64,000 nt of DNA from Candidatus Kapaibacterium sp. GTDB lineage: Bacteria; Bacteroidota; Ignavibacteria; Kapaibacteriales; UBA4661. Positions 11,237-61,444 of the stretch are shown piece by piece. The stretch's first letter is position 1; every line of letters begins with the position of its first letter. Both the position numbers and the translations under genes were made by a program. The stretch covers positions 3,000-66,999 of the forward strand of contig JANWZB010000002.1 in the NCBI GenBank assembly GCA_025055035.1, read 5' to 3'. The notes below the pieces were generated by a model. The model had not been told where the DNA came from. It saw only the letters and a list, made by a program, of their open reading frames with translations, and did no database searches.

Positions 11237-11302
11237 AACAGTACATCACAGAGATTAGTAGCCTTTTGCATCATTTTGTGTTATTGAGGAGAACTAGTTA
11301 CC

Positions 11303-16214: not shown

Positions 16215-16226
16215 TGCATCCGAAAC

Positions 16227-19724: not shown

Positions 19725-19749
19725 TTCGGTTATATAATGTTCCAGCAAG

Positions 19750-19823
19750 CTCCGGAAGCAGGGCTTGAACCTGCGACCCTCTGATTAACAGTCAGATGCT
19801 CTAACCAGCTGAGCTATTCCGGA
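19750..19823 (-). tRNA. tRNA-Asn (anticodon GTT)
   Basis: Reverse complement is TCCGGAATAGCTCAGCTGGTTAGAGCATCTGACTGTTAATCAGAGGGTCGCAGGTTCAAGCCCTGCTTCCGGAG. It forms a perfect 7-bp acceptor and an anticodon loop CUGUUAA. CCA is not encoded. Confidence 0.9.
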
Positions 19824-20541: not shown

Positions 20542-20552
20542 AAAATTAAAAA

Positions 20553-21224
20553 TTACACAATTTGTGGCATAAAAGGCAAGCTAGACTTTAGAAATAGTAG
20601 GAAAGAGCCAGAATGTAGATAAATCGTTACAGTATGATGGCGAGCTTGGTTTCTCGCGCCTTCTCGCTTGCCGAGAGCGAGAGTTTCGTTCGACAGATTC
20701 CACATTAGACCGTGAGTCGTAAGAGTAGCTTCCGGTTGTGGAATAAGGGAAAGCATTTCTCCAGGCTGTACTGAAAACTGTACCGATTCGTATACAGGAA
20801 GAGCAGTGGTACCGTTGTCGTATATAGCTATGCGCATAGTTTTCCCATAGCGCATAAGAATACTCCAGTTGTTTAAAGTATGGTCAAATTCTCCTCCGTG
20901 AAGACCAATCACTATAATTGACGAATATCCACGAGAGCGTACAAAATCAAGCGTTTTCTCGAAGTCAGTAGTATCTTGACTCGATTGTTCTTCTATAAAA
21001 ACGTGCTCACATTGTTCCCAATATATACGTTCTTGTGCCACGGAGTCTAAATCTCCAACAATGTACTGAGGAATGATACCTATATCTCGAAGTTTCAGAG
21101 ATGCACCGTCAGCTGCAGCTATAGGAAGTAAACGTAGGCATTCAAAATCTTCCTGATGCGGTAAGGTACCGTTTAGACAGACTACGATATCAGGTACAAC
21201 AAGCTTGAGGGTCTTTACAGACAT
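20553..21224 (-). CDS. Thiamine pyrophosphokinase
   Basis: N-terminal catalytic domain with the IVGDLDS signature, plus a C-terminal thiamine-binding domain. 223 aa. Confidence 0.7.
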   Translation of the reverse strand: MSVKTLKLVVPDIVVCLNGTLPHQEDFECLRLLPIAAADGASLKLRDIGIIPQYIVGDLDSVAQERIYWEQCEHVFIEEQSSQDTTDFEKTLDFVRSRGYSSIIVIGLHGGEFDHTLNNWSILMRYGKTMRIAIYDNGTTALPVYESVQFSVQPGEMLSLIPQPEATLTTHGLMWNLSNETLALGKREGARNQARHHTVTIYLHSGSFLLFLKSSLPFMPQIV

Positions 21225-21251
21225 GATGAATAATGTTTCACGTGAAACATT

Positions 21252-21309
21252 TGTGGAGTTTCCACAAGATTATCCACAAGATTGTATATTTTCCACAATG
21301 TTATCCACA
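21252..21309. promoter_or_regulatory. Array of five DnaA-box-like 9-mers (two perfect TTATCCACA) in the promoter region of the thiamine pyrophosphokinase gene
   Basis: TGTGGAG (rc) at 21252. GTTTCCACA at 21258. TTATCCACA at 21270. TTTTCCACA at 21289. TTATCCACA at 21301. The four head-to-tail boxes are spaced 12, 19 and 12 bp apart. Confidence 0.55.
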
Positions 21310-21318
21310 GTAAGTGGT

Positions 21319-23040: not shown

Positions 23041-23064
23041 GATTTTGGTAAGGTTGCTATCCTT

Positions 23065-24363
23065 CTATGAAATTCCGCATCGTGCGAAAATTGCATCAAT
23101 ATTGCTAAGAAAGGACATTGGAATGCTAAAAATTTCTTCTAAATCCCTATGTGACAAGAATCGAGTAACATCTGCATCTTGTCTAAGGTGTTCTAAAAAT
23201 GGCTTACGGTCTTTCCATGTACGCATAGCGTTGCGCTGTACCATTGCATAGGCATCTTCTCGAGAAACACCTCGCTTGACAAGCTCTAGTAGAACAGTTT
23301 GCGAGAATATAAGTCCGCAAGTTGCATGTAGGTTCTTTTGCATGGTTTCTGGGTACACGAGCAAATTCCTAAGTAAATTGTTCGTGAGATGGAGCATGTA
23401 ATCCAGTATGATTGTAGAGTCGGGAATAACGATGCGTTCAACACTGCTATGAGAAATATCTCTCTCATGCCACAATCCAACATTTTCCATTGCAGCAATT
23501 GCATTTCCGCGAAGGACGCGAGCAAGTCCACAAATACGTTCGGACATAATAGGATTGCGCTTATGAGGCATAGCCGAACTACCTTTTTGTCCTGCTGAGA
23601 AGTATTCTTCCACTTCGAGTACTTCTGTACGTTGCAAGTGACGGACTTCGAGGGCGATTTTTTCCAGAGATGCGCCAATAAGAGCAAGCACCAATAGAAA
23701 CTCGGCGTGGCGGTCGCGTTGAATAATTTGAGTAGTTATAGGGTCTGGTTTTAAGCCGAGCTTCCGAGCCACGTATTCTTCAACTTTCATAGAAATGTGC
23801 TCATACGTTCCTACAGCGCCGCTAATCATGGCTACTGATACACTGTCAATTGCTTGGGTAAGTCGTCGTATATTGCGTTTAGTTTCCTCATGCCACAAAA
23901 GAAATTTTAATCCAAACGTTGTTGGTTCTGCATGGATACCATGGGTTCGACCAATACATATAGTATACTTGAATTCTTGAGCACGTTGAGCGGTAATATC
24001 ACGCAAGCGCTGTAGTCCTTCTAACAACAGCTCGCCTGCCTGCTTCATTTGAATAGATAAACATGTATCGAGAATATCGCTCGAAGTCATTCCCAGATGA
24101 ATATAGCGAGCAGATTCACCAACATATTCAGCCACGTTTGTTAGAAAGGCAATAACATCATGTTTTGTTGTCTCTTCAATTTCAAGTATTCGCTGAACGT
24201 CAAATTGTGCTTTAGCTTTAATATTGTCGAGATCTGCCTGTGGAACAATCCCAAGAAGAGCTTGTGCTTCAACGGCTGCTATTTCGATGTCTAGCCAGAT
24301 GCGATACTTGTTTTCGTCGCACCAGATTGACCCCATTTCAGGACGAGTATATCGTGCAATCAT
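23065..24363 (-). CDS. purB: Adenylosuccinate lyase PurB
   Basis: 432 aa. Start MIARYTRPEMGSIW, then the fumarate-lyase signature (GSSAMPHKRNP) and a C-terminal ADSL domain. Confidence 0.85.
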   Translation of the reverse strand: MIARYTRPEMGSIWCDENKYRIWLDIEIAAVEAQALLGIVPQADLDNIKAKAQFDVQRILEIEETTKHDVIAFLTNVAEYVGESARYIHLGMTSSDILDTCLSIQMKQAGELLLEGLQRLRDITAQRAQEFKYTICIGRTHGIHAEPTTFGLKFLLWHEETKRNIRRLTQAIDSVSVAMISGAVGTYEHISMKVEEYVARKLGLKPDPITTQIIQRDRHAEFLLVLALIGASLEKIALEVRHLQRTEVLEVEEYFSAGQKGSSAMPHKRNPIMSERICGLARVLRGNAIAAMENVGLWHERDISHSSVERIVIPDSTIILDYMLHLTNNLLRNLLVYPETMQKNLHATCGLIFSQTVLLELVKRGVSREDAYAMVQRNAMRTWKDRKPFLEHLRQDADVTRFLSHRDLEEIFSIPMSFLSNIDAIFARCGIS

Positions 24364-24417
24364 AGGTGTTGAGTAAAATACCCAAAATACCTTAGGTTCA
24401 CAAACTAGAAACTAAAA

Positions 24418-24891
24418 CTAGAGGACTTCATCGCATTCTATAGTGTACATAATGTCAGCAAATTCATCAGTAACATTCGTATTCACTATCAATTTGCCAC
24501 GTACTCGCACAATACCACCTTTGTATTGTGTTACCTTTCCTTTCCTCATCTGGACAAAGATGACTTCATTAACACGAAGAGGCGGATGACAAAAACAATT
24601 CATTGGTGGTGATGAAGCTAAAACAAACTCATCGATATCTTCGAGCTGAGTAAGAGCAGCCATAAACCCTATAATTTCAACGTTTTTACCGTTAAATTCA
24701 AGTACCTCTTGCGGTGGCTTTTTACCAGGTATATATAGACGCAAGGTGCGAAACGATAGTGTCTGGTACGAAGTCGCATAATGTGCAGCGTGTAATGGCA
24801 GCGAAGTATAGACTACAGAAGTAGCGTATGATGAAAAATATGTCATAGAGATACACAATCCGAGAGAGAAAAATGCAATAGTGAGGTACAT
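24418..24891 (-). CDS. Secreted hypothetical protein (DUF3299-like)
   Basis: Signal peptide, then a conserved CxCHPP region (NCFCHPPLRVNEVIFV). 157 aa. Confidence 0.45.
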   Translation of the reverse strand: MYLTIAFFSLGLCISMTYFSSYATSVVYTSLPLHAAHYATSYQTLSFRTLRLYIPGKKPPQEVLEFNGKNVEIIGFMAALTQLEDIDEFVLASSPPMNCFCHPPLRVNEVIFVQMRKGKVTQYKGGIVRVRGKLIVNTNVTDEFADIMYTIECDEVL

Positions 24892-27996: not shown

Positions 27997-28173
27997 ATAT
28001 ATTGAAGTTTGTCGTGAGCTGCCAAAGTGATATTTTTATGGGCTTAATTCTTGTCGCAATACTTTCAAATAGTGCCCTTCGCTATGATGTTGTGTGCTGT
28101 GCGTTGCTTCCATATGCTGCGTTGTGTGTGGAAAACATCATTGAAAACAGCATGTTGTAGCATAATGTTGCTG

Positions 28174-31100
28174 ATGTGCCAGAACCTGCAACGACTACAC
28201 ATCTCGCAATGCGGAGGAACTCTTCTAGTGTTGCTGCTCTCATCTGTACATGTATTGTACACGCAATCTTTAACGCTTTTTGATGTCAATGCTTCGGCGT
28301 TTCCTGTGGTCCGAGCAAAGTTTTTTGCTCTCGATGCTGACGGAAAACCGCTAACTGATATATCTGCTCGTGATGTTGTTGTGCGAGAGCATGGGGTCCC
28401 CCGAACTGTAACAGCTGTTGTGTGTTCTCCACAGCAGAGCACAGTGCGGTCTCTCTCTGTTGTTTTGACAATTGATGTTTCAGGTTCAATGAAAGAAGGA
28501 ACTTCGGGCGTTTCGCATTTGTCCTTAGCACAAGCAGCTGCACGTGCATGGGTGCAGGCTATGCCTGAAGAAAATGTCGAATGTGCAATTACAAGTTACG
28601 ACCACATAAGCTATCTCAACCAAGATTTTACACAAGACCGTAAGCGTCTCCTTAAAGCTATCGCTAATTTGAAGCCTCAAGGGGGAACAGATTATGATGC
28701 AGGACTTCTCAGACCGCAAGGAGGAAGCTTGTTCGTGATGCAAAATGCTAAGTATAGTCGCCGTATCGTCATTTTTCTTACAGATGGACAAGGCGGAGGA
28801 ACTGAAGAGCAAATAATTGAAGTAGCAAAAAGCGATGGCGTGAGCATATACTGTATTGCTGTTGGTATGCCTGCACCCGAAATTCTACGCAATATTGCAC
28901 GCCAGACAGGAGGAGAGTGCTTCGATAATATTACAACAGTTCAACAAGCTGAGCAAATCTACCGTATTCTGTTACAATTTGCTCTTGGGAGTAAGCCATG
29001 CGAAGTATCATGGCTCAGCGAGCAGACATGTAGTGTCAGCCGTGTGCAAGCAACACTATCGCTCCCTGCACGCCTACTCTCCCATGCGTTTACCTACGAG
29101 ATTCCCGCAAAAGCTGTCAAGGCGCTAGAATTTTCGAGCGAAAACATTACCTTTGGTGGAGTTCCTCCGGGAAAGTCGCGAGAGATGCGTTTAGTTCTAC
29201 GTGCACGTAATAGTGCGTTTACCGTTAATAGTATTGAGAGTTCAGATGAACGATTTAGTGTAACACCGACGTACTTTACCCTGAAGTCTGGACAGCGTAA
29301 AGTCGTTACTGTAAAATATACTCCTACAGATTCAGGATATGCCTTTGCGACACTAACAGTGAACGATAATGTATGTGGGAACCACACTCTGTATGTCAGT
29401 GCAGGATTCCCTGGAAAAAAGCCTCAGCAATCCACATTGAAGTTGTTAGAGCCAAATGGTGGTGAGCAGTATGTTGCTGGGTGTGATACGGTGATTCGTT
29501 GGCAGGGAATTACGCCATCGGAGGCTGTCAGTATTGAGTTCAGCGATGATAATGGTGCATCGTGGCAGAAAATCATTCCTGCTACAAGTGGTCTGCGAAC
29601 AGATTGGCAGATACCCAAAACTTCAACAACTAGAGCACTTGTTCGTCTAAGGCAGCTTCAATCGCCTACATTTTCTCATTTCAAAGACCTCATGACAAGT
29701 GCTGTCTTTCTGCCCGATAATCGTACAGCTGTAACACTTGGTTCAGGAGGAGTTGCGCGAGCATGGAATCTCGATAAAGGTACAATGGGGCAAATATACT
29801 TTAGCAACCAGTTTGGTCAGCGTAAGAGCACCCTACTTCCCGGTAAGCTTGTCGTAACACCGCAGGGCGAATACGTTATTGGCGGATTTGATGAAGGTAC
29901 TGTGCGAATTTGGGACGCTGCAAGTGGCGACTTAGTGGATGTATACTACGATCATGCCGATGCAATTACTGCATTGCGGTTCTTCCCGAGTGATGGGAGC
30001 CGTGTAAGCCGTGTTCTTACCGCAAGCCTCGACAGTACTGCACGAGTATGGTACATAGAGAACGCAGAAACTGCACTTGTGCTTAAGCATAACGGCCCTG
30101 TATACGATGCTGTTGTTTCACCTGATGGTTCTCTTATCGCGACAGCTGGTGGTGATAGTGTTGCTATGCTGTGGGATGCGAAAACAGGCGAGTTACTCTA
30201 CAGGTGCGAAGGACATACGGATGTTGTCCTAAGCGCTGCATTTTCGCCGGACAGTAAGAAGCTTTTGACAACAAGTGCTGATGGAACAGCACGAATCTGG
30301 GATACACGCAAAGGAACACAGCTGGAACGATTCACAGGACATAGAAGTGTTGTATATATGGGAATCTTCTCGCCCGACGGGGAGCGTGTTGTGACGTGTA
30401 GCGCTGATAGTACTATCAAGGTATGGAGTGGCAAAGGTGGAGGATGGATCCAAAATCTACGAGGGCACCAGGGTATTGTAAGAAAAATTATGTTTGTACC
30501 TAATAGTTCAGCGATACTTTCAAGTGTGAGTTCTGATAGAACAGCAAGAATATGGGATTTATCTGCAGGTCGTACAGTCCAAATTCTTGGAGGTGTTGAA
30601 GCACGCAGCAAATCCAGCGTTGGAAGTGGAATAGGCATAGCTGATGGGCATACTGGTGCAGTGTACGATATGGTATTTTCTCCTAATGGTGCGTATGCAG
30701 CTACAGTAGGCACTGACCATAAAGTGTATTTTTGGAGAATAAATACAACAGCATCAGTCTCTGCTGGAAGTATTTTTCGATCTAGCCCTTTAATTTGGGC
30801 GCTTGACACCACTGCTGTACAAGAAGCTATCTCTGCTGCTCCATTTACTATTACTCAGCCTCGTTTTTCTGTTAAAAGCATTGATATGGGGCGGCAACTG
30901 CGTGGGGACAGCAAGGATTCTGTTATTGTAGCTTGTATCCAAAATGAGGATAATACTCCTTTGCGCATTGATGAGTTGTCATTTCTTGGTAGTGCGGCAC
31001 AGGACTATAGTATTGTGTCAGGCGGAGCGCCGTGTATCGTACCCCCAAAAGGTTCTCGTAATCTGGAAGTACGCTTTAAGCCGTGCTGCGTGGGCGGGAG

Positions 31101-32907
31101 ACCAGCACAGCTTCGGATTGTCTCTCAGTCAGATGTGCGATATGTATCTGTGACAGGAGCAGGTGTATCGCCACTTATCGTTGTTATGAATCGTAGTGTA
31201 GATTTTGAAGAGGTGAAAATTAGGCAATACCGTGATACTGTAGTTACTGTGTTAAAAAACATTAGCCTACAGCCTGTTATTATTACTGGTATTTCGTTCA
31301 TTGGTCCTAATACAACGGATTTTCGCCTTGTGGGGAATGCATCGCAAATTATTCGTACAGATACATCATATATTTTGTACCCAAATGCTACACTGTCGTT
31401 GCGCCTACGGTTTAAGCCTACAAATAGTGGGCGTACTTCTTGTCAGATGAATATTGAGTATAGTGGATTAGGTAGTCCTGCAACAGTTCAACTGTTTGGT
31501 ACAGGGAATTCAGCACTCTCTGCATATATTCAGCCATTTGGTGTAAAGCCTCATCCAAGCTCTAGCCGTAAGGATAGCGTTGAATATCCAATACAAGCTT
31601 TACGCGTGGAGGAATTCCTTGCAACAACTATGCATCCACTCTTGAACTATATATTCTTTGACAACAACTCATTTACTCTTCCACGCCGTTATAATCAGCT
31701 TACACCAGAGCAAGCACGTCGCTTGATAGAGACGAAACAAGCATTTGAGAAAGTTCTTTCTGCACAATCGACGCTTGATGTGTACAGGAATGTGCTCAAC
31801 ATTATTGGTAGCCGCATGCTCCTTTATCCTTCCTCAATGCTGACGATTGTTGGGTGCAAATCAGGAAAAGAAAAGTTCGTAATTCCGGCCACACAGGCGC
31901 GAGTACTTGCATTATCAGCAAGCAATGCTCAAACAATTACAACAACGCAGGCAAATATGGTACCAGCAACAACTTCTCAGTTGACGCTAGTTGAGCACGC
32001 AAGTATCTTACAAAAGCTTACGGCTCAAGATGATATGCGCCTTTCAGAAGCACGAGCCCTAGCAGTGCGTGAGTATCTTCACACAGTATGGGGAATTCCT
32101 GAGGAACGCATGCCGATTCAATTCCGAGGGCTACCAGAAAAGTTCTCTAATGAGCAAATACCTGATGGCATAGCAGAAAACCGCCGCGTCGAATTGATTC
32201 CTTCTATACCAGAGCTTACGGCAACGGTTCTTGCTCAAGATACGCTAAGGGTTGTCGTGCCACCTGTTGTACGCTTTCGCACAAATGCACTCTCGCAAGC
32301 AAATCTTACTACATGGAATGTTGCAGTAGTACAAAGCACCGGTTCTAGGTCCCGAAAAACAACTCAAATCCTCAAAACTGTTTCTGGTACGGGAAAACCG
32401 CAGGAGCGCATAGAATGGAATACAGAGCGAGAGGTATCAACAGCGCCAAAGCTTACCGTTCCTGTGCAATATAGTTTGAGTGTAAATGATGATAGTGGTG
32501 CAAATACTATAGCTTCGGGTAGTTTACCGCTGGAGCTTATCTCGATTTCTAAAAAGCGTGCGGCGAAGGCTGCAGATAAGGAGGTCAATACGTTTGGTTT
32601 GCTACTGTTTGATTTCAATAGAGCAGAGATTACGGGTCAAAATGCCAATGTACTGGAATTTGTTCGTAAACAAATACTTCCCGAATCTCGTGTGAGTATT
32701 GTAGGCTACACAGATCGCACTGGTAGTAGTCTCCTAAATAAGTCTTTGTCTCTTCAGCGAGCAAAGGCAGCAGCAAGCGCACTCAGTCGTCCTGATGCTC
32801 TTGTGCAGGGGCGTGGGAGCGACGGTTTGCTGCATGATAATACGACACCAGAGGGAAGGTTCTACTGCCGAACGGTAAACATTGTTGTAGAAAATGCTAT
32901 ACGCTAA
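28174..32907 (+). CDS. Giant exported multidomain protein: signal peptide – vWA – Ig-like – WD40 beta-propeller – Ig-like – 2x OmpA_C-like
   Basis: vWA MIDAS TIDVSGSM...TDGQGGG. At least six WD40 blades (GHTDVVLSAAFSPD...ARIWD, KVWSG, ARIWDLS...). Two C-terminal OmpA-like domains (...NRRVELIPS and VGYTDRTGSSLLNKSLSLQRAKA). Start taken at MCQNLQRL... (28174), a plausible signal peptide. The listed ORF start 28051 is probably over-extended. Confidence 0.75.
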   Translation: MCQNLQRLHISQCGGTLLVLLLSSVHVLYTQSLTLFDVNASAFPVVRAKFFALDADGKPLTDISARDVVVREHGVPRTVTAVVCSPQQSTVRSLSVVLTIDVSGSMKEGTSGVSHLSLAQAAARAWVQAMPEENVECAITSYDHISYLNQDFTQDRKRLLKAIANLKPQGGTDYDAGLLRPQGGSLFVMQNAKYSRRIVIFLTDGQGGGTEEQIIEVAKSDGVSIYCIAVGMPAPEILRNIARQTGGECFDNITTVQQAEQIYRILLQFALGSKPCEVSWLSEQTCSVSRVQATLSLPARLLSHAFTYEIPAKAVKALEFSSENITFGGVPPGKSREMRLVLRARNSAFTVNSIESSDERFSVTPTYFTLKSGQRKVVTVKYTPTDSGYAFATLTVNDNVCGNHTLYVSAGFPGKKPQQSTLKLLEPNGGEQYVAGCDTVIRWQGITPSEAVSIEFSDDNGASWQKIIPATSGLRTDWQIPKTSTTRALVRLRQLQSPTFSHFKDLMTSAVFLPDNRTAVTLGSGGVARAWNLDKGTMGQIYFSNQFGQRKSTLLPGKLVVTPQGEYVIGGFDEGTVRIWDAASGDLVDVYYDHADAITALRFFPSDGSRVSRVLTASLDSTARVWYIENAETALVLKHNGPVYDAVVSPDGSLIATAGGDSVAMLWDAKTGELLYRCEGHTDVVLSAAFSPDSKKLLTTSADGTARIWDTRKGTQLERFTGHRSVVYMGIFSPDGERVVTCSADSTIKVWSGKGGGWIQNLRGHQGIVRKIMFVPNSSAILSSVSSDRTARIWDLSAGRTVQILGGVEARSKSSVGSGIGIADGHTGAVYDMVFSPNGAYAATVGTDHKVYFWRINTTASVSAGSIFRSSPLIWALDTTAVQEAISAAPFTITQPRFSVKSIDMGRQLRGDSKDSVIVACIQNEDNTPLRIDELSFLGSAAQDYSIVSGGAPCIVPPKGSRNLEVRFKPCCVGGRPAQLRIVSQSDVRYVSVTGAGVSPLIVVMNRSVDFEEVKIRQYRDTVVTVLKNISLQPVIITGISFIGPNTTDFRLVGNASQIIRTDTSYILYPNATLSLRLRFKPTNSGRTSCQMNIEYSGLGSPATVQLFGTGNSALSAYIQPFGVKPHPSSSRKDSVEYPIQALRVEEFLATTMHPLLNYIFFDNNSFTLPRRYNQLTPEQARRLIETKQAFEKVLSAQSTLDVYRNVLNIIGSRMLLYPSSMLTIVGCKSGKEKFVIPATQARVLALSASNAQTITTTQANMVPATTSQLTLVEHASILQKLTAQDDMRLSEARALAVREYLHTVWGIPEERMPIQFRGLPEKFSNEQIPDGIAENRRVELIPSIPELTATVLAQDTLRVVVPPVVRFRTNALSQANLTTWNVAVVQSTGSRSRKTTQILKTVSGTGKPQERIEWNTEREVSTAPKLTVPVQYSLSVNDDSGANTIASGSLPLELISISKKRAAKAADKEVNTFGLLLFDFNRAEITGQNANVLEFVRKQILPESRVSIVGYTDRTGSSLLNKSLSLQRAKAAASALSRPDALVQGRGSDGLLHDNTTPEGRFYCRTVNIVVENAIR

Positions 32908-54583: not shown

Positions 54584-54660
54584 CGCGGGGTGGAGCAATT
54601 GGTAGCTCGTTGGGCTCATAACCCAGAGGTTGCAGGTTCAAGTCCTGTCCCCGCTACATA
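54584..54660 (+). tRNA. Initiator tRNA-fMet (anticodon CAT)
   Basis: CGCGGGGTGGAGCAATTGGTAGCTCGTTGGGCTCATAACCCAGAGGTTGCAGGTTCAAGTCCTGTCCCCGCTA. Three consecutive G:C pairs close the anticodon stem. Positions 1:72 are unpaired (C·U). The 5' half closely resembles the E. coli initiator (CGCGGGGTGGAGCAG...). Confidence 0.85.
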
Positions 54661-54745
54661 TACACCCTGTAAAAATGCCGCTTGGTTTTGATATGAGCCA
54701 AGCGGCATTGTTGTTTGTTGAAGGGTAAAGATTGCTATTGTTCTC

Positions 54746-55399
54746 TCAAGAAAACGATGATTGGGAAAAATCTAGAGAAGAAGCAGCAGCGCGTCTTCGG
54801 AAAAATCGTATGATCAGCCAGACAATAAGACCTATAATAGCTATCCCAAGGAACAAACGAAAGAATGAGAATGTTGGAGGGTAAACTTCTGTCGTTCCAT
54901 CAGGATTTGTGACATACACAGGACGAGAATAGTAAAACGCAGGATGAAATGGCATGTACCAAAGTGCAGAGGTCTGCCCCATAAGATAACCCATCATGAG
55001 CCCATCAGCAAAGCCGCCATAGCTATGGACAATGTATGGCGAAGATGCTCCAGGTACGCTAACAGGCGTACTCTGGCGTGGTATGCCATAGGAGCGGCGA
55101 TAGTTCGATGCTGCTGGAGCCATGCTCCGTGTTCCTCCAAAGCTTGTTGTACCGCTGCGTTGCAGCGAAGAGCTTGCAGAAGGTGCTGCAGGACTTGGTG
55201 TATAGCGATAACTTTGGGATGGCATGGCAGGTCGGCTTGGTGCATATGAAGGAGAACTTCGAAATCCTCCAAAGCTACTGCGGCCGCCGCGGCGCTGTGC
55301 CTCAGCTTCCAGAGAAGAAAGTAGTAATATCGCTAATGCTGCAAGTGTCGCAGAAACACACATGAGCAGAGAGTGTGGCTTGAAAGAGAGTCTATTCAT
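54746..55399 (-). CDS. Hypothetical secreted, C-terminally membrane-anchored Ser/Pro/Arg-rich protein
   Basis: Signal peptide, then a low-complexity region (RRGGRSSFGGFRSSPSYAPSRP...), a conserved-looking GGFADGLMMGYLMGQ segment and a C-terminal TM helix plus RRR tail. Confidence 0.45.
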   Translation of the reverse strand: MNRLSFKPHSLLMCVSATLAALAILLLSSLEAEAQRRGGRSSFGGFRSSPSYAPSRPAMPSQSYRYTPSPAAPSASSSLQRSGTTSFGGTRSMAPAASNYRRSYGIPRQSTPVSVPGASSPYIVHSYGGFADGLMMGYLMGQTSALWYMPFHPAFYYSRPVYVTNPDGTTEVYPPTFSFFRLFLGIAIIGLIVWLIIRFFRRRAAASSLDFSQSSFS

Positions 55400-55435
55400 A
55401 GGAGTTATTCAGAAATGCAATGTGGAAGAATAGTT

Positions 55436-55921
55436 TTATCCAAAAATGAGCTCTGTCGAGATAGACTCATCAGGATTGCGGTATCGAATTTCGGCACGGA
55501 ATATTGCTTGTTCGCCGTATCCTTGTTGTTTTTTGAATATCGAAGTGAAGCCGCTGCTCTGAGCTGGTGAACCGCGTTGAATTTGCACAAGTAAATCAAC
55601 AATACCGTCCTGTGGCTCTTCGTTAATGTACACCATAGTATTTTCGAGTAAGCCATCACTTGTGATTGTGAGTAGCCGTAAGAATTGTGCTTCCTCTTCA
55701 GTAAATGTAGGAGGAACTTTTTTAATGTTGTCCAAATAGTCGGTAAATATGTTTTTCGTGTACATTTGCTTGTCAGTACCCTCATAGACGATAATGGTAT
55801 CGAAATCACCATCTTCGCTGATGTGAAGCATAATCTGATGAATGCCGCCTACTTGTTCACCATTGATATACACCGCTGTTTTTTCGAGGCTGCCATTGCT
55901 CTCGATAGAAATCTCACGCAT
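55436..55921 (-). CDS. Hypothetical protein with internal duplication
   Basis: Two similar modules (LEKTAVYINGEQVGGIHQIM... and LENTMVYINEEPQDGIVDLL...). No known family recognised. Confidence 0.4.
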   Translation of the reverse strand: MREISIESNGSLEKTAVYINGEQVGGIHQIMLHISEDGDFDTIIVYEGTDKQMYTKNIFTDYLDNIKKVPPTFTEEEAQFLRLLTITSDGLLENTMVYINEEPQDGIVDLLVQIQRGSPAQSSGFTSIFKKQQGYGEQAIFRAEIRYRNPDESISTELIFG

Positions 55922-56032
55922 GAGCTGTCCTTTCTTCTACAAAAAGTTCCAAAAAATGCTGACGCAAATAGAAAGAAAAAGTTACAGTGCTATCAAACTC
56001 AGTGTAGTACTGTTATTTGTCAGTTAGGAGCT

Positions 56033-56812
56033 TTACGCATGTTTGTTCATAAGCCGCTCCACTGCATAGTGATGCAAGAGCCTGCAGGGGCTGTATCTGT
56101 TACTGTTGTATTCAGCATATAAGGCCTCTAATATTGCAAAAATAACGTCGAAGCCAATATTTTCAGCCCACTCTAGGGGTCCGTAAGGATAATTTGTCCC
56201 AAGTTTCATTGCTGTATCAATTTCGCTGGGAGTTGATATGTTCTCAAGAACTGCAAACGCTGCTTCATTAACAAGCATTGCAACAATGCGTGGCACAACA
56301 AATCCCACAATGTCGTCTATTGTTTCGGTGCGTAGCCCTACACTGCGAAATAGCGTTTCTGCTAGTAACAGAGCTTCGGCGGAAAGTGTACGGGAATACG
56401 CAAGCTCAATTACTGTCATTTCTGGAAAAAATCCTGCCAAAAGATTAGCTCGAATAGTATTTGGTGCATTTATCACCTTTGCAAGATATGCCGCAGTAAG
56501 GGTGGGTGTAGAGAATACAAACAGTGCAGTGGGGTTTTGGTTGCAAAGAAATGTTAGTATGGCGTGATGTACTTGGTCAGGATATAATGAAAAGTCAACA
56601 ATAATGTCTGGACGAAATGACAACTCTGAAGTGTTTGCCACAATTTTCTCCGCAAACGAAGCAAGGTGGGTATCTGGTGCACCATTAAGAATAATCTGAA
56701 ACTGAATAGAACATTTATGAAGCAGTGCAGCAAAGGCGTGTATGCTTCGTTGGTCATGCTGTTCTGAAATAAGGAGTACACAAGGCTGAGATATTGCTGC
56801 GTGGTTGTCCAT
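56033..56812 (-). CDS. 3-hydroxyacyl-CoA dehydrogenase-fold protein lacking NAD-binding GxGxxG and catalytic His (putative pseudoenzyme)
   Basis: Colinear with 3HCDH (ANTSEL as ATNTSSL, AGFFPEMTVIEL as GHFFNPxxVMxLVE, GFVVPRI as GFxVNR, IDTAMKLGTNYPYGPLEWAENIGFDV as the C-terminal domain). The Rossmann glycine motif is absent, and His in HFFNP is replaced (AGFFPE). Confidence 0.55.
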   Translation of the reverse strand: MDNHAAISQPCVLLISEQHDQRSIHAFAALLHKCSIQFQIILNGAPDTHLASFAEKIVANTSELSFRPDIIVDFSLYPDQVHHAILTFLCNQNPTALFVFSTPTLTAAYLAKVINAPNTIRANLLAGFFPEMTVIELAYSRTLSAEALLLAETLFRSVGLRTETIDDIVGFVVPRIVAMLVNEAAFAVLENISTPSEIDTAMKLGTNYPYGPLEWAENIGFDVIFAILEALYAEYNSNRYSPCRLLHHYAVERLMNKHA

Positions 56813-56865
56813 AGAGTTCTAGGGCAGGAAGTAGAAGAGCACGTCTCTAGCACGCGAAACATTGT

Positions 56866-59800
56866 TCATTTGTGTTGGAATAGTTTGGTTATGCGTAGCG
56901 TAGTATCGAGCAAGCGTTCTCGCACACTCAGTAGACCCAACGATAAAAGCACGGTGAAGATTGTCATGCATATCAAAACAACCGCATTATAGCAGACAGT
57001 CGGCACGTACTTCTGGGAAAAGAACATACGCTTCTCATGAATTAGCATTGGATAGTCGAAAAGTCCGATGTGCGCTTGGGTCATTACTCCGCCAGTGCTA
57101 TCAAGGGCTTGTAGCATAGCGTGGAGCTTATCCTGTGCTTCGAGCACCTGACGGTGGATTTCTTGATTTCCATACTTATCTTGAAACTGTAAGCGGTGCT
57201 GCTCGACCGCAGAATCGAGAGAAGCCTTGTTTTGTTCATAAGCGTCAATTTCTCGCTCTGCTCTTTCAATACTTTGATTGAGTTGTACAAGTTTAGTCTG
57301 CAGTTCGGCGCTTAGTGTGGAGGAGTCGGCTTGAGCAAGGAGAGAGTTACGTTCTTGTAGTGCCGCGTCACGTTCATCGTAAACACGTAGAATATTTTTT
57401 GCTGGCGCCTGCAGTTCATCATCCCTACTTTGGAAACGATTATACCTATCTTGCATCGTTATTAAGCCTTCGTATGCCCAGCGTGCTGGGATAAGCTGGC
57501 AAATCTCTGGGATTTCGCGTGTAGTGTTGAACTTTAAGTGAGTCATCTCGCTGTATGGAATAAGAGCGCCCCCAAAGATGATTTGGGGAATGAGAACAAG
57601 GGGTACAATGTTAAATGCTGCTTTTGCTGACAGGTTCGGTAGCGCTGATATAAGGAGTCCAGTTGCTATACCAACAATCGAAACAAGAGTAAGAAATAGT
57701 AGGTACGCAGCATGAAGTTCTTGGAGCTGCAGTATCGGAAAAGCAGCTATGATAAAGAGAGCGTTTTGCAGCAATGCAAAGACAACGAGCGTAATGAACT
57801 TCGATGCATAGTAGCTGAGGTTGCCAATATTCAGCATCCGTTCTCGCAGAAGAACAGCAGCGTCTTTGATGATTTCATCTATACTATTGGTAATTGCTAG
57901 AAATGTTGCAATGATAACTGCCAAAAATATGAAGATGGCAAGGTTGTCGTTTTGAAAGAGATTGTATTCGGCATCGATGTCGGCTGCATGCCGCAAAATG
58001 AAGCTTACAGCAAGAGCAAGAGCTGGTGCTTCAAAAAATGTAATAATGAGATTAGAGCGGTCGCGAAACTTGTTGACAAAGTTCCGTTGTAAGAGAGTAG
58101 TAAATTGTCGCCACTTTTCGCGCAAAGAGAGTTCACGAGGCTGTGGAAGTGAGACGCGTTCGGAGTCTTCTATTGTTAGGCGGTGTACAGAAGCACGAAA
58201 ATCCAGAAACTTTTCCTTCCAGTACATTGGTGTGTATTTACGCTGAGACAGGGGCACACCATCAATATCCCGCAAGGGTTCTTCGAGCGTTTCGAGCAGC
58301 AAATCCGGTTCAACGTTTTTACATACAGGACACTCAACCATTTCAGCAGCAACTTCGGGGTTTACAGGCGAAGCAGAAACGTGAGACTCAAGAGAATGAG
58401 TTTTAAAGTATGCTAGTGCTGCCATTGTGTCGCCAAAAAATGCAGTTTTTCCTCCTTTGTCTAGGAACAAAATCTTATTGAACATCTTGTATATCTTGGA
58501 GCTTGGCTGATGAATAACCACAAAAACAATCTTACCTTTGAGTGTTAAGCGCTGGAGTAATTCAATAATTTTTTCCGAATCTTTTGATGATAAGCCTGAT
58601 GTTGGCTCGTCAAGAAAGTATACATCTGCATCAGCTAAAAGCTCTAAGCCAATATTCAAGCGCTTACGCTGTCCTCCTGAAAGAGTTCGTTGTGTTGGGC
58701 TTCCGACCTTGACGTTGCGCTTCTCTACAAGATCGATATCTACAAGTGTTTGCTCGACAAGAGTACAGATTTCTTCATCGGACATATCGGGATGTCGAAG
58801 TCGAGCGTTATACATCAAGTTTTCATAAACTGTTAGATTTTCAAACAATAAATCATCTTGCGGTACATACCCTAGATAGTCTTTAAGTGCTTGGTAGTCG
58901 TGGTGAAGATCGTAGGCATTGATTTCGATATTACCGTCATTTGGTTTATTGTAGCCATTCATAATATTTAGCAATGTAGATTTCCCGCACCCTGAAGGAC
59001 CCATAACGGCGACAAGGTCTCCATAGTCAATCTCAAACGAGATATCATCGAGGGCAAGAGTGTTATCTTGGAAAGAGTAACGAACATTTCGAGCGATAAA
59101 ATCGCGGAAGCGAAATGGTTCGGAGCGTACTACACCTCCCAAGAACGAGCAATGGAAGACTTGCTTGGAGATAAAAATGTGGCACTCGGCAGGAAGAATT
59201 TGGGGCTTCTTTACTGCTTTCCCATTGTAGCCGATGCGATGAGGACAACCACGCGGGTCAAGAATATACTCTGCCGAGCTAGCATGATCCTTGCGAGTAA
59301 CGGTGATGTGCCACTGTTTTGAAAGACCATCATGAAAGATAGCATCGCATTCCGCATGATTTCCAAACGTGAACGATGGCTTTTTGGGATCGAACGTGAA
59401 GACTTCACTTTCGAGACCATATTGAAACGCAAGCTTACGGAGGTTAATTGGGCAGTTTCCAATTAGAACGCTGTCATTCAAGTTAACATATACTTGTGTT
59501 TCTACAGGGCGTCCGTTCACAACAAGCTGATTGGCAAGCTTTCCCAAGTCGGAATCTGTAACACCAAGCGGTGTCAGAATAATAAAGAGCTTGGTAAATT
59601 CGATGAGCAAGACGTCGTCCATACTAGGCATTTGCGAGAGAACAAACTCTGTTGTTCTACGTTCGGGGTTGATTCGACGCGATACGAATAGAGCAAATCC
59701 GAGTAGGGTTTTTGTTTTAAGGTGAAAGTAGTAGCTTAGGTCTTCGAAATTGATAGTATAGCTATCAATCGAAATGGACTGATTGTGCTGAATTTTCGTT

Positions 59801-60447
59801 GCATTGAGCAAATTTCGCGATGTCTTGCCAGCAATAGGAACGTTGCCAACTTTCACAAGATGTTTGTCATTCTTTTGAAGAATGATGTAGATACTGCGGA
59901 TTTTGAATATTTCTACGTCAAGGAGCGGAAAGGGCAATACAATATCGAACAGCTGCGGGTCGTCGCCAATAGTGATAGAAATTATCTCAGACTGTTTTGC
60001 TATTTCTAGTGTTTCTGTAGAAGGTAGGTCGTAGATGCTTTCTACTTTGCATATGTCGGGGTCAGTCAATCCTATCATGCGTCCAATTCTCCGTGCCGTT
60101 TCGCGTTCTACATCGTCCATCGTATCCGAAGCCGCAAGCTCATAAACTTTCATCAGGATAAATACACGGTTTTCGTAGGAAAATCCCGTACGAATTTGAG
60201 CTGCTGCTTGCTCTGCATCAATATTTTCCGAGAGAAAGTACTCAAATTGCTTGTAGAGATACTCTGCAACAGGAGCATGATAAATGGACGTGAGATAAAA
60301 TCGCACGTAGTCACGCTCTGCCTGCGAAACACTGCTATCCGCTTTAGCAAGCAAGCTAAATAGCTTGACAGTGTTGATAAGAAGCGAATTACCTAAGCTC
60401 TCTTTGAGCGTAGAGGCTTGAGAAGTATCATGAGCGTGAGAAATCAT
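56866..60447 (-). CDS. TerB-like – FHA – FHA – ABC ATPase – ABC-2 permease fusion (ABCG/White-type half transporter, Rv1747-like architecture) with C-terminal coiled coil
   Basis: N-terminal TerB-like repeats (KADSSVSQAERDYVRFYL / ASDTMDDVERETARRIGRMIGL). FHA-like segments (FTFGNHAECDAIFHD..LSKQWHITV...NGKAV). NBD with Walker A GPSGCGKST, signature LSGGQRKRL, Walker B VYFLDEPTSGL and H-loop VIHQPS. Six TM helices, then a coiled-coil region and a terminal TM helix. Confidence 0.8.
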   Translation of the reverse strand: MISHAHDTSQASTLKESLGNSLLINTVKLFSLLAKADSSVSQAERDYVRFYLTSIYHAPVAEYLYKQFEYFLSENIDAEQAAAQIRTGFSYENRVFILMKVYELAASDTMDDVERETARRIGRMIGLTDPDICKVESIYDLPSTETLEIAKQSEIISITIGDDPQLFDIVLPFPLLDVEIFKIRSIYIILQKNDKHLVKVGNVPIAGKTSRNLLNATKIQHNQSISIDSYTINFEDLSYYFHLKTKTLLGFALFVSRRINPERRTTEFVLSQMPSMDDVLLIEFTKLFIILTPLGVTDSDLGKLANQLVVNGRPVETQVYVNLNDSVLIGNCPINLRKLAFQYGLESEVFTFDPKKPSFTFGNHAECDAIFHDGLSKQWHITVTRKDHASSAEYILDPRGCPHRIGYNGKAVKKPQILPAECHIFISKQVFHCSFLGGVVRSEPFRFRDFIARNVRYSFQDNTLALDDISFEIDYGDLVAVMGPSGCGKSTLLNIMNGYNKPNDGNIEINAYDLHHDYQALKDYLGYVPQDDLLFENLTVYENLMYNARLRHPDMSDEEICTLVEQTLVDIDLVEKRNVKVGSPTQRTLSGGQRKRLNIGLELLADADVYFLDEPTSGLSSKDSEKIIELLQRLTLKGKIVFVVIHQPSSKIYKMFNKILFLDKGGKTAFFGDTMAALAYFKTHSLESHVSASPVNPEVAAEMVECPVCKNVEPDLLLETLEEPLRDIDGVPLSQRKYTPMYWKEKFLDFRASVHRLTIEDSERVSLPQPRELSLREKWRQFTTLLQRNFVNKFRDRSNLIITFFEAPALALAVSFILRHAADIDAEYNLFQNDNLAIFIFLAVIIATFLAITNSIDEIIKDAAVLLRERMLNIGNLSYYASKFITLVVFALLQNALFIIAAFPILQLQELHAAYLLFLTLVSIVGIATGLLISALPNLSAKAAFNIVPLVLIPQIIFGGALIPYSEMTHLKFNTTREIPEICQLIPARWAYEGLITMQDRYNRFQSRDDELQAPAKNILRVYDERDAALQERNSLLAQADSSTLSAELQTKLVQLNQSIERAEREIDAYEQNKASLDSAVEQHRLQFQDKYGNQEIHRQVLEAQDKLHAMLQALDSTGGVMTQAHIGLFDYPMLIHEKRMFFSQKYVPTVCYNAVVLICMTIFTVLLSLGLLSVRERLLDTTLRITKLFQHK

Positions 60448-60633
60448 TGGGATACAAGATACTTATAAAACAATTATGTATAACCGTACCTCCAAGTATA
60501 ACGTACACAATCCACACAAGCAAATTTCTTTTTCGCAATAGCCCGAAAAATGTTAGACGGTGTTGTGTAATATCTCTAAGAAAGGCTATGGATTAGGTAG
60601 GCACGGAACTAGGCTTGACAAATACAAAGAGAC

Positions 60634-60665
60634 CTGCTTCGGACTAGAAAGAAGCAGGTCTGGCG
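60634..60665 (-). terminator. Perfect 11-bp hairpin (AGACCTGCTTC / GAAGCAGGTCT), terminator-like, immediately 3' (minus strand) of the tRNA-like element
   Basis: Stem at 60634-60644 and 60655-60665. On the minus strand it is followed by CTTTGTATTTGT. Confidence 0.5.
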
Positions 60666-60678
60666 GATGTTTGAGGGG

Positions 60679-60798
60679 CTGTAGGAGAAGGAGTCGAACC
60701 TTCACGGAGGGCTTAGGAACTGCTTTGTGGGCAGACTTTATCGCTGAACTCCACCGTCGGGACTGGACGGCACGGCTGCCTGTTTCGTCATCCTACAG
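60679..60798 (-). ncRNA. tRNA-like structured element (8-bp acceptor-like helix + canonical T-arm GAAGG-TTCGACT-CCTTC), unclassified
   Basis: Minus strand reads 5'-CTGTAGGA...GAAGGTTCGACTCCTTC-TCCTACAG-3'. The 11-mer GGTTCGACTCC equals the tRNA/tmRNA T-arm consensus. The 120-nt length fits neither a standard tRNA nor tmRNA. Confidence 0.4.
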
Positions 60799-60964
60799 TG
60801 TGGAAGGAACTACAAGCAATACAGGTTATGCTGCATATTTGATGATGCAAAGATATAAAATAGCGATTCTTGATGCAAATTTATTTGTAAATTCTGAAAA
60901 AAAATACATACTTTGCAAAAAAAAACGCTAAAATTATAGAGTTTATAATTCATCGCTACGTGTT

Positions 60965-61444
60965 ATGAGGCAAATTATCGATATTGATGATCTTGACATT
61001 AAGATACTAACAATGCTTTTGCATAATGCTCGGCTACCATTTACCGATATTGCTCATGAGGTTCATACTTCATCGGGTACCGTGCATGTGCGTATGAAAA
61101 AGCTGGAGGCAGCAGGAGTAGTTAAAGGTTCACAATTATTGATTTCACCAGCAAAACTGGGATACGATATTTGTGCTTTTCTAGGAATATACCTTGAAAA
61201 AGGCTCGCTGTACAAAAGGGTAGTTAAAGAGCTGGAACTAATTCCAGAGATTATTGAGCTCCACTATACTACTGGCAACTACAATATTCTCGCTAAAATC
61301 ATTTGTCGAGACACGCAGCACCTACGAGAGGTTCTGAATGACAAAATCCAAGCGATAGAGGGTATAGAACGCACTGAAACGTTTATTTCGCTCGAAGAAA
61401 GCCTGCATCGTCCTTTGTCGCTTGAGGAGACATTTAATCCATAG
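60965..61444 (+). CDS. Lrp/AsnC-family transcriptional regulator (second copy)
   Basis: HTH (LDIKILTMLLHNARLPFTDIAHEVHTSSGTVHVRMKKLEAAGVV) plus a RAM domain. 159 aa. Confidence 0.8.
   Translation: MRQIIDIDDLDIKILTMLLHNARLPFTDIAHEVHTSSGTVHVRMKKLEAAGVVKGSQLLISPAKLGYDICAFLGIYLEKGSLYKRVVKELELIPEIIELHYTTGNYNILAKIICRDTQHLREVLNDKIQAIEGIERTETFISLEESLHRPLSLEETFNP

Follow-up and report, generated by a model that had tools for sequence, protein, structure and literature searches.

Closest described systems

Rv1747 of Mycobacterium tuberculosis carries N-terminal FHA-fold modules ahead of an NBD-TMD half-transporter of the ABC-2/ABCG type and PknF exerts positive control over it via the FHA domains (PMC3138270). 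Consecutive FHA-fold β-sandwiches also stand at the cytoplasmic N-terminus of another membrane ATPase, EssC/YukA of type VIIb secretion, an FtsK/SpoIIIE-type enzyme with two such modules, which lack phosphothreonine (pThr)-binding motifs (PMC4925161). The order of NBD before TMD, the ABC-2 membrane fold and the topology of six transmembrane (TM) helices recur in the eukaryotic half-transporters ABCG2, ABCG1, ABCG5/G8, and AtABCG25. Here we analyze a 1193-aa protein with the architecture TerB, three FHA-like modules, NBD and ABCG-type TMD, which is encoded at 56866..60447 on the minus strand of a 64-kb window, the whole stretch of DNA that was analyzed. In contrast to Rv1747 (PMC3138270), it has no adjacent kinase gene, bears an added TerB head and possesses three FHA-fold modules instead of two, all without pThr-binding residues; unlike EssC, it is an ABC transporter with three such modules; and unlike the eukaryotic ABCG half-transporters, it has a large N-terminal regulatory arm.

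A bacterial ABC exporter with a TerB head

A Bacteroidota metagenome-assembled genome includes an annotated protein, P0001, of identical sequence, and homologues with 77-84% identity come from Kapabacteria; the transporter family as a whole is small, accounting for about 50 clusters out of 1.8 billion representatives. Pfam recovers ABC_tran (residues 466-617) and ABC2_membrane (780-996), and the best NCBIfam match is TIGR00955 of the ABCG/White subfamily, in agreement with the original prediction of an ABCG-type transporter. The NBD (58348..59091, minus strand; residues ~453-700; PF00005, E 8e-31) has intact motifs that are invariant in 37 homologues, namely Walker A (G483-S485-G486-G488-K489), the signature (L589-S590-G591-G592), Walker B (D613-E614), and H646. 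We conclude that the gene encodes a genuine, uncharacterized ABC exporter of bacteria, headed by TerB as a putative sensor.

That head (60052..60375, minus strand; residues 25-132), which had likewise been predicted, scores 41.5 bits against PF05099 (E 1.9e-10), above the curated cut-off of 24.4. It retains the paired acidic motifs of TerB (KAD..V..AE and ASD..DDVE), whose COG3793 representative (PDB 2ou3) is a weak sequence match. The domain is detected in 27 of the 37 family members at E≤1, and its Asp37 is at least 90% conserved in the family. In the present protein the domain is joined to a transporter, outside any ter operon; in some homologues from Delongbacteria a GAF domain replaces it, with the middle and C-terminal parts being the same.

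The membrane domain begins with TM1-TM5 and re-entrant helices (57439..58059, minus strand; residues ~797-1003), delineated by PF01061, phmmer, Foldseek, and hydropathy. Its structural matches in Foldseek include ABCG5/8, G1, G25, and G2 (rmsd 2.3-4 Å, about 229 columns). Searches with phmmer align the protein to eukaryotic ABCG proteins with E 1e-39 to 1e-42, and the alignments to ABCG2, ABCG1, and ABCG8 stop at residue ~965-1000, short of their TM6. Hydropathy identifies six TM segments, and AF2, applied to residues 776-1193 (model pLDDT 84), predicts three long helices (1004-1039, 1047-1092, and 1095-1117; pLDDT about 83-91) followed by TM6. What had been described as a C-terminal coiled coil is hence a helical insertion between TM5 and TM6 (57001..57438, minus strand; residues ~1004-1149), and AF2, hydropathy, and alignment to ABCG proteins identify the supposed extra TM helix as the canonical TM6. 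TM6 and a basic cytoplasmic tail occupy 56869..57000 (minus strand; residues 1150-1193), with an AF2 helix at 1150-1192, a hydropathy peak at 1155-1173, and five K+R in the tail; this segment spans 44-46 aa in nearly all complete family members.

The insertion ranges from 100 to 292 aa across the family, whereas the other segments are nearly constant in length. It is absent from the classical FHA-FHA-ABCG proteins, in which TM5 is followed by only 66-140 aa up to the C-terminus, and it takes the place of the short, disulphide-stabilised EL3 of ABCG2. The K+R counts by segment (6 / 0 / 3 / 0 / 0 / (large loop) / 5) place the flanking loops inside and thereby the TM5-TM6 loop outside. Topology rules and homology thus predict that the ~145-aa insertion sits in the last extracytoplasmic loop and faces the periplasm.

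Three FHA-like modules without pThr-binding residues

The original prediction placed two FHA domains behind TerB. The Pfam FHA model finds no match in the protein at E≤1, unlike profile-profile comparison, AF2, and Foldseek, which uphold the fold and revise the count to three. For residues 133-455, AF2 predicts three β-sandwich units (pLDDT 83), and the top Foldseek matches of this model are the tandem FHA domains of EssC (9qks_H, 5fwh, and 1wv3; sequence identity 9-12%), followed by many classical FHA domains. When compared by hhalign with 97 classical FHA domains, the degenerate module 1 (59713..59994, minus strand; residues ~152-245) was matched with 94% probability (E 1e-7), the likewise degenerate module 2 (59413..59697, minus strand; residues ~251-345) with 93% (E 4e-7, 64 columns), and the best-preserved module 3 (59116..59406, minus strand; residues ~348-444) with 99.1% (E 2e-18). 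Modules 1 and 2 are each modeled as a β-sandwich followed by a helix (pLDDT of the module 1 block mostly 82-93), and ~215 columns of the module 2 region are aligned by Foldseek to the EssC tandem FHA pair. Module 3 is homologous to FHA2 of bacterial FHA-FHA-ABCG proteins (E 5e-12), its profile matching FHA2 of genuine members with E down to 1e-10. The arm is described here as three consecutive predicted FHA-fold modules, with profile probability and modeled structure as the basis for the first two.

None of the three modules retains the canonical pThr-binding Arg, Ser, His, or Asn, and the residues found instead are conserved family-wide: in the aligned consensus, GR becomes GN or xD, SxxH becomes xxxW, and S-NG-T becomes gCPy. 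Module 1 has x-D where GR is expected and is missing SxxH and NG, while the family-conserved residues of module 3 are G-N for G-R, W for S-x-x-H, and C-P-[YH] for N-G. The apical loops of the modules are also conserved within the transporter family.

These replacements bear on the proposal that the protein is an exporter regulated like Rv1747, with its FHA domains reading pThr marks that a distant Ser/Thr kinase writes and a PP2C phosphatase erases. Homology to genuine FHA-FHA-ABCG proteins and the positive action of PknF on Rv1747 are in keeping with this, as is the ORF at 21319-23040, previously noted as a PP2C and identified as GAF-SpoIIE/PP2C by domain search, whose counterpart in the relative L007 is no more than about 4 kb away from the cluster. 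However, SpoIIE-type phosphatases usually function in partner-switching pathways. Moreover, no Pkinase domain was found in the scanned ORFs of at least 150 aa in the 64-kb window, bearing out the earlier remark that no kinase gene lies nearby, and the closest structures belong to the EssC FHA pair, which does not bind phosphorylated ligands. Since the pThr-binding residues are missing from all three modules and there is no Hanks kinase in the 64 kb, phospho-control in the style of Rv1747 is unlikely, and a complete scheme of reader, distant writer, and eraser appears very improbable.

The downstream genes and their conservation

Three further minus-strand genes follow that of the transporter, and the coordinates of all four co-oriented ORFs match the earlier listing exactly. 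They code for a 3HCDH-like protein (56033..56812; 259 aa), a protein with an internal tandem repeat (55436..55921; 161 aa), and a Ser/Pro-rich protein (54746..55399; 217 aa). The gaps between the four genes are 53, 111, and 36 nt, and a strong terminator stands only after the last of them, not within the run. It is a hairpin at 54674..54709 with a 15-bp stem, a T-run on the plus strand and TTTTT after it in the minus-strand reading, which could terminate both the minus-strand run and a plus-strand tRNA-Met. With such short gaps and no strong stop signal between the genes, a common transcript of all four is still conceivable here; the downstream three may or may not share one with the ABC gene. 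Upstream of the ABC start codon, a stretch at 60485..60550 (minus strand) is 76-82% identical by blastn to its positional equivalents in L004/L005 and L009/L010, with no sharing in the remaining intergenic DNA around it, and is a candidate promoter or 5′ UTR. A tRNA-like RNA family, unannotated, is found directly upstream.

The 259-aa protein shares the 3HCDH C-terminal dimerisation domain with the PaaH-type 3-hydroxyacyl-CoA dehydrogenase of E. coli (3mog) and with Hbd. Its only Pfam match is to the C-terminal domain PF00725, and both in NCBIfam and in the PDB its closest counterpart is the extra C-terminal domain of PaaH-type enzymes (residues 376-467 of 3mog, domain E 6e-19). Unlike PaaH and Hbd, it lacks the NAD-binding GxGxxG; in alignment with solved enzymes, their NTSS corresponds to STPT, their catalytic His to L, and their GFIVNR to GFVVPR, i.e., catalytic Ser to Pro, His to Leu, and Asn to Pro. 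GxGxxG and the catalytic Ser, His, and Asn are missing in all of about 115 family members inspected as well. The earlier diagnosis of a dead 3HCDH paralog thus survives alignment, and the protein is, by these residues, catalytically dead. It belongs to a widespread stand-alone, non-catalytic family that is usually encoded elsewhere in the genome, with members in unrelated contexts in L011 and L012.

The 161-aa protein contains the predicted internal duplication (BLASTP of its two halves, E 2e-7) and is 83-86% identical in L004 and L007. Its gene is located upstream of the ABC gene in L004, adjoins a gene for a 260-aa secreted protein in L068/L069, and forms a pair with that for the 217-aa protein, which always goes with it. 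The latter matches no Pfam family, and its translation displays the signal peptide, Ser/Pro-rich stretch, and C-terminal TM with a basic anchor expected of the secreted, membrane-anchored protein originally proposed.

One possibility is a single export module of all four genes, as suggested earlier, in which the dead 3HCDH-fold protein would assist the transporter by binding lipid or acyl-CoA. The co-orientation of the genes, their close spacing, and the terminal hairpin are consistent with such a unit; only one close relative (L007/L008, 84% identity) has all four in this order, and the ABC and 3HCDH genes are merely 3 nt apart in L009. Yet relatives at 81%, 79%, 77%, 61%, and 56% identity do not preserve the order. 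In L004 the ABC and 3HCDH genes are 6 kb apart, with p3 and p4 upstream of the ABC gene, and in L006, L001, and L003 the transporter has other neighbors. Likewise, genomes that share 79-84% identity in the ABC protein share only 41-48% in the 3HCDH-like protein, the broad family of the latter speaks against a dedicated accessory, and distant relatives of the transporter have none of the three genes nearby. A single four-gene module is hence quite improbable: the downstream genes are neighbors by local gene order shared among close relatives, not obligate or conserved partners, and this includes the 3HCDH-like gene.

What distant relatives keep next to the transporter gene are instead genes for two other proteins, one secreted, helical, and ~260 aa long, the other of ~140 aa. 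The 260-aa gene, with or without the 140-aa gene, adjoins it in L003, L066, L067, L082/83, L084, L086, L090, and L095, and lies within 3-5 kb of it in L004 and L009. This recurrence of secreted proteins in distant lineages, along with the large, predicted periplasmic insertion of lineage-variable length, raises the prospect of a mechanotransducer in place of a transporter, wherein ATP-driven motion of a TM5-TM6 stalk would work on periplasmic partners such as these proteins, comparable to the action of NosFY, MacB, and FtsEX on periplasmic components. NosY chains are indeed among the fold matches of the membrane domain; nevertheless, its best matches are substrate-translocating ABCG proteins, and neither the ~260-aa nor the ~140-aa gene is present in the 64-kb window. 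At the level of sequence, export with hand-off and pure mechanotransmission look alike, and we regard the latter as a doubtful but not far-fetched alternative.

A proposed mechanism

Taken as a whole, the locus is best explained as a TerB-sensing, FHA-relayed ABCG-type exporter with a periplasmic stalk, the downstream genes being mere neighbors; we assign this reading a probability of roughly 0.6. The 1193-aa protein is a stand-alone ABCG-type (type V fold) half-transporter that presumably functions as a homodimer, in which the periplasmic TM5-TM6 insertions may form a helical stalk. TerB would serve as the input domain, sensing a putative cytoplasmic metal or small-molecule ligand, as hypothesized in the literature, and the re-tooled FHA stack would pass its state to the NBDs via protein-protein contacts, without phosphorylation by a kinase. 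ATP hydrolysis would then extract cargo of a hydrophobic or lipid-like nature from the inner membrane and move it toward the stalk, a lipid or glycolipid being a possible substrate. In other lineages of the family, the stalk probably cooperates with the secreted ~260-aa helical and ~140-aa proteins encoded beside the transporter.

A TerB-headed ABCG-type protein with three FHA-like modules

The largest gene of the cluster (56866-60447, minus strand; hereinafter the ABC gene) codes for a 1193-aa protein, the N-terminal head of which was recovered in Pfam searches as a TerB domain (PF05099, residues 25-132, E = 1.9e-10; 41.5 bits against a curated cut-off of 24.4), the match spanning positions 3-113 of the 118 in the profile. 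Metal or ligand binding by the TerB family is as yet only a hypothesis of the literature. Further downstream lies an ABC_tran nucleotide-binding domain (NBD; PF00005, residues 466-617, E = 8e-31), placed N-terminal to an ABC2_membrane domain (PF01061, residues 780-996); its Walker A, signature, Walker B, and H-loop motifs do not vary among 37 homologues. The 320 residues separating TerB from the NBD are conserved in both length and sequence across the family. Since a Pfam scan of the protein gave no FHA match at E<=1, we turned to family profiles, hhalign, and AF2 modeling combined with Foldseek searches. An AF2 model built from 24 family sequences (pLDDT 83) displays three beta-sandwich units, with a short helix after units 1 and 2. 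Its best PDB matches in Foldseek were the tandem FHA domains of EssC (9qks_H, 5fwh, and 1wv3; ~215 aligned columns), followed by dozens of classical FHA domains. A profile of module 3 (mid2) also picked up genuine FHA-FHA-ABCG proteins, at their second FHA domain, with E-values down to 1e-10, and in profile-profile comparisons with 97 classical FHA domains, module 3 (residues ~348-444) scored 99.1% (E = 2e-18), module 1 (~152-245) 94% (E = 1e-7), and module 2 (~251-345) 93% (E = 4e-7). Taken together, the model, the Foldseek matches, the module 3 search, and the profile-profile scores argue for three FHA-fold modules. Thus, the TerB head of the original prediction stands on a score above the curated cut-off, and of its two FHA domains the fold is upheld by structural and profile evidence, the count has to be raised to three, and a Pfam FHA match is lacking.

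The canonical FHA phosphothreonine pocket is formed by an arginine (GR), a serine and a histidine (SxxH), and an asparagine (NG). In the aligned consensus of module 3, the canonical G-R is replaced by G-N, S-x-x-H by a conserved W, and S-x-N-G-T by g-C-P-[YH]; none of the canonical phosphothreonine-binding residues is present in modules 1 and 2 either. As the replacements are themselves conserved across the family in all three modules, the apical loops are conserved but chemically re-tooled. The middle modules adopt an FHA fold, yet by their aligned residues do not qualify, in functional terms, as FHA domains that bind phosphopeptides. The FHA pair of EssC provides a precedent for FHA folds without phosphothreonine motifs (PMC4925161). 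Short helices (model residues 102-113 and 204-213) connect the modules in the AF2 model, and there is no long disordered inter-FHA linker of the kind that would carry phospho-acceptor threonines in an Rv1747-like exporter.

These features bear on the likeness to Rv1747, to our knowledge the one studied example of an FHA-headed ABC exporter, a pump under kinase signalling. No protein-kinase domain was detected among the scanned ORFs of at least 150 aa in the 64-kb window, in agreement with the kinase-free neighborhood noted originally, and the genes called in those related loci that protein look-up retrieved likewise include no Pkinase domain. With the pocket replaced in all modules, no Pkinase domain in the window or the related loci, and no disordered linker, the Rv1747-style phospho-control proposed for this protein is unlikely. 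In Rv1747, the pump is kinase-controlled and a conserved serine of FHA-1 (Ser47) is needed for function (PMC3138270), whereas the family described here has kept the FHA scaffold and lost the phosphate-reading chemistry; it further differs in having a sensor head that can be exchanged (TerB or GAF) and an extended helical insertion predicted to be periplasmic. In its mode of action, the 1193-aa protein resembles Rv1747 less closely than the domain plan would lead one to expect.

A helical insertion ahead of the sixth transmembrane helix

Hydropathy analysis delineated six transmembrane (TM) segments (residues 800-818, 835-853, 884-902, 916-934, 939-965, and 1155-1173). Searches with phmmer against ABCG1, ABCG2, and ABCG8 gave E-values of about 1e-39 to 1e-42, with alignments that span the NBD through TM5 and end at ~965-1000, before TM6 of these transporters. 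By the counts of lysine plus arginine per loop, which are 6, 0, 3, 0, and 0 ahead of the 187-aa loop and 5 in the tail after it, the long loop lies outside, and the inner side holds the N-terminus, the loop between TM2 and TM3, and the C-terminal tail. In an AF2 model covering residues 776-1193 (pLDDT 84), long helices span 1004-1039, 1047-1092, and 1095-1117, and a small hairpin and then TM6 (1150-1192) come after them. On these combined grounds, together with the Foldseek matches of the membrane domain to ABCG5/G8, ABCG1, ABCG25, and ABCG2 (probability 1.0), what had been described as an extra TM helix is the canonical sixth, and what had been described as a C-terminal coiled coil is a helical insertion ahead of TM6, where ABCG transporters have their extracellular loop EL3. 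This insertion is predicted from sequence and model to face the periplasm. Foldseek also matched NosY, and the protein could conceivably be a mechanotransducer in the manner of NosFY or MacB; as the membrane domain matches substrate-translocating ABCG proteins best, we regard this as the less likely reading and retain the originally predicted ABCG-type half-transporter, which would carry out transport proper.

The TM5-TM6 loop is the sole segment of the family with much length variation (100-292 aa); in classical FHA-FHA-ABCG proteins, the entire stretch from TM5 to the C-terminus comprises only 66-140 residues. A Kapaibacterium MAG (GCA_004292595.1; loci L006 and L003) has two transporter paralogues, P0012, which is 77% identical and has a loop of 156 aa, and P0028, which is 56% identical and has one of 250 aa, such that short-loop and long-loop forms coexist in one genome bin.

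Distribution of the family and exchange of its head domain

The closest relatives of the 1193-aa protein (77-84% identity) come from Candidatus Kapabacteria, and an identical copy is annotated in a Bacteroidota MAG. In a search of 1.84 billion representative proteins with a profile built on the three modules, full-length matches were confined to ~45-50 clusters, nearly all of them proteins of ~1050-1330 aa; weaker matches covered module 3 only and lay in ordinary FHA proteins. All 36 representatives scanned contain ABC_tran and ABC2_membrane, with TerB detected in 16 of the 36 (E<=1e-3) and GAF in two. In some Delongbacteria homologues, a GAF domain occupies the TerB position with everything downstream retained, and more distant ABCG relatives bear cNMP-binding or receiver domains. 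This modularity of the head (TerB, GAF, cNMP-binding, receiver) is the main argument for interpreting the first domain as a sensory input. Literature searches retrieved no paper on TerB-ABC fusions.

Conservation of the four-gene run

The window is ordinary chromosomal DNA (G+C ~44%), in which four co-oriented minus-strand ORFs occur exactly where they had been predicted: the ABC gene is followed by genes for a 259-aa 3HCDH-like protein (56033-56812), a 161-aa protein (p3; 55436-55921), and a 217-aa protein (p4; 54746-55399). The gaps between them measure 53, 111, and 36 nt (56813-56865, 55922-56032, and 55400-55435). Inside the cluster we found only weak 5-bp stems and no strong terminator; a strong hairpin lies 3′ of the last gene (54674-54709, 15-bp stem, followed by TTTTT in the minus-strand reading) and closes the run together with a tRNA-Met gene (54584-54657, plus strand). 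The short gaps and the lack of a strong internal terminator make co-transcription of the four genes possible. A sigma-70 promoter scan, a model unsuited to this lineage, returned 10 sites against 12.4 expected from shuffled sequence, and no Bacteroidetes-type TAnnTTTG box lies directly upstream of the ABC start.

The comparative evidence argues against the four genes being a functional unit, as the original prediction of an operon-borne module had it. Among the relatives compared, the full order is kept only in L007/L008 (ABC protein 84% identical to that of the window) and is broken in eight other loci (L004, L009, L006, L001, L003, L065, L066, and L067). For instance, L009 (79%) retains only the ABC and 3HCDH-like genes, 3 nt apart. 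In L004 (81%), the next gene after ABC is a LytTR regulator in convergent orientation, the 3HCDH-like gene is 6 kb off, and p3 and p4 are found as a pair on the upstream side of the ABC gene, beyond a methyltransferase encoded on the opposite strand. The neighbors are unrelated in L006 (77%) and L001 (61%), and in L003 (56%) the ABC gene adjoins a different, 267-aa gene. The latter, unannotated and located after the ABC paralogue, was considered as a diverged 3HCDH-like gene and rejected (BLASTP E = 1.0); it belongs to the 260-aa family described below.

In L007 (region 10777-16528), the four genes are directly followed by a Rhomboid-TPK-GAF/SpoIIE-ADSL-DUF3299 block, whose counterpart in the window is found ~30 kb from the cluster, at 19894-24891. 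With tRNA genes at both junctions (tRNA-Asn, 19749-19823; tRNA-Met, 54584-54657), this suggests a rearrangement at tRNA genes. Elsewhere in the window, a plus-strand gene (28051-32907) codes for a 1618-aa protein with VWA, WD40 beta-propeller, Cep192-like, and C-terminal OmpA domains.

The 3HCDH-like, 161-aa, and 217-aa proteins

The 259-aa protein contains only the C-terminal 3HCDH domain (PF00725, residues 170-252, E = 2.3e-20); PF02737 gave no match, and the Rossmann GxGxxG is absent, with LLISEQHDQRS at the motif position. Alignment to active enzymes showed the catalytic Ser, His, and Asn replaced by Pro, Leu, and Pro, respectively, with the Glu kept, which bears out the dead paralog of the original prediction. 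It is best matched by the additional domain at the C-terminus of PaaH-type enzymes (positions 344-499 of NCBIfam PRK08268; residues 376-467 of PDB 3mog). The same losses of catalytic and NAD-site residues were seen in every homologue inspected (~115), including short "family proteins" of Chloroflexi, Paenibacillus, Chlorobi, and Ignavibacteria, and two genes of the family occur in unrelated contexts. By these alignments, the protein belongs to a non-catalytic family of long standing and did not lose its activity recently at this locus. Between genomes with ABC proteins 79-84% identical (the window against L007, L004, and L009), the 3HCDH-like protein is only 41-48% identical, and p3 (83-86%) and p4 (66-68%) are far more conserved; by this comparison, the 3HCDH-like protein evolves unusually fast. 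The other two proteins were likewise characterized correctly at the outset: the internal repeat of the 161-aa protein is genuine (E = 2e-7), and the 217-aa protein, as read from its translation, is Ser/Pro-rich, predicted to be secreted, and anchored at its C-terminus. The p3 and p4 genes are always found together.

Secreted proteins adjoining the transporter in other loci

The 260-aa protein recurs next to TerB/FHA-like ABCG transporters of distant lineages. It has a signal peptide, is all-alpha, carries the motifs ALNLGTRxxDAF and GGWLEGL, and belongs to no Pfam family. Its gene directly adjoins that of the transporter in L003 (12356-13159), L066 (10591-11838), and L067 (5694-6917), being accompanied in the last two by a gene for a secreted protein of ~140 aa, and it lies 3-5 kb or less from the transporter gene in L004 (486-1265) and L009 (15866-16603). 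A metagenome scan seeded with the 260-aa protein yielded 29 loci, six of which also encode the transporter (L082/83, L084, L086, L090, and L095); L084 (9851-14322) and L086 (482-6156) display the co-directional order 260-aa, 140-160-aa, ABC. In L068/L069, homologues of p3 and p4 directly follow the 260-aa gene. No member of the 260-aa or 140-aa family was found in the window by tblastn and HMM searches of all six reading frames.

A candidate small RNA family upstream of the ABC gene

A 517-bp gap separates the ABC start from a divergent AsnC-type regulator (60965-61444), and within it we detected an unannotated tRNA-like RNA of ~125 nt (~60676-60799, minus strand) with its own terminator (~60610-60655). 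It combines an 8-bp terminal stem (CTGTA[G/A]GA / TC[C/T]TACAG), one pair of which covaries cleanly (G-C vs A-U), with an invariant, perfect T-arm (GAAGG-TTCGACT-CCTTC) and, at the anticodon-arm position, a hypervariable hairpin closed in several copies by GCAA. In all, 15 copies, from the window and from eight Kapabacteria or "Ignavibacteria" contigs, have ~95 invariant positions in common. Besides the window, the RNA occurs in L007 (4157-4294, 4319-4452, and 4498-4624), L014, L015, L018, L022, L024, L025, L026, and L030. Copies stand singly or in tandem arrays of two or three, and each seems to have a Bacteroidetes-type -7 box to itself. The constant neighbor of the RNA is a divergently oriented AsnC/Lrp-type regulator (85-92% conserved), not the ABC gene; because of this constant companionship, we rejected the idea that the RNA serves the ABC gene as leader or riboswitch. 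It gave no match in Rfam 15 (gathering and E-value modes), ARAGORN was negative, and literature searches returned nothing on it; these features make it a candidate new sRNA family. A 123-aa GTG ORF on the plus strand (60560-60931) has no Pfam match and runs antisense across both the RNA and the terminator; it is unlikely to be a gene.

A proposed mechanism and its implications

In our preferred reading, the transporter would act as a homodimer, with TerB as its ligand sensor. The FHA stack would signal to the NBDs independently of phosphorylation, and the helical insertion would be directed to the periplasm. The cargo may be hydrophobic or lipid-like, and in other lineages could be passed to the secreted proteins of ~260 aa and ~140 aa. 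A bolder reading, to which we assign a probability of roughly one in five, sees the family as a self-contained, ligand-gated envelope machine. In it, a cytoplasmic sensor (TerB, or in some Delongbacteria GAF) would control the ABCG-type pump through three FHA folds turned from phosphopeptide readers into fixed relay modules; the helical hairpins between TM5 and TM6 would form a periplasmic stalk of lineage-dependent length; and this stalk would pass a hydrophobic cargo on to dedicated secreted proteins of ~260 aa (all-alpha) and ~140 aa. If true, this would constitute a hitherto undescribed route for material from the inner membrane to the periplasm in bacteria of the FCB group.

For annotation, the lesson is that "FHA" need not mean kinase control and that a "3-hydroxyacyl-CoA dehydrogenase family protein" may be no enzyme. 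If the logic proposed here holds, the family shows how a regulatory arm that once depended on phosphorylation can come to depend on a ligand, and it extends the ABCG fold by a periplasmic stalk and secreted partners.
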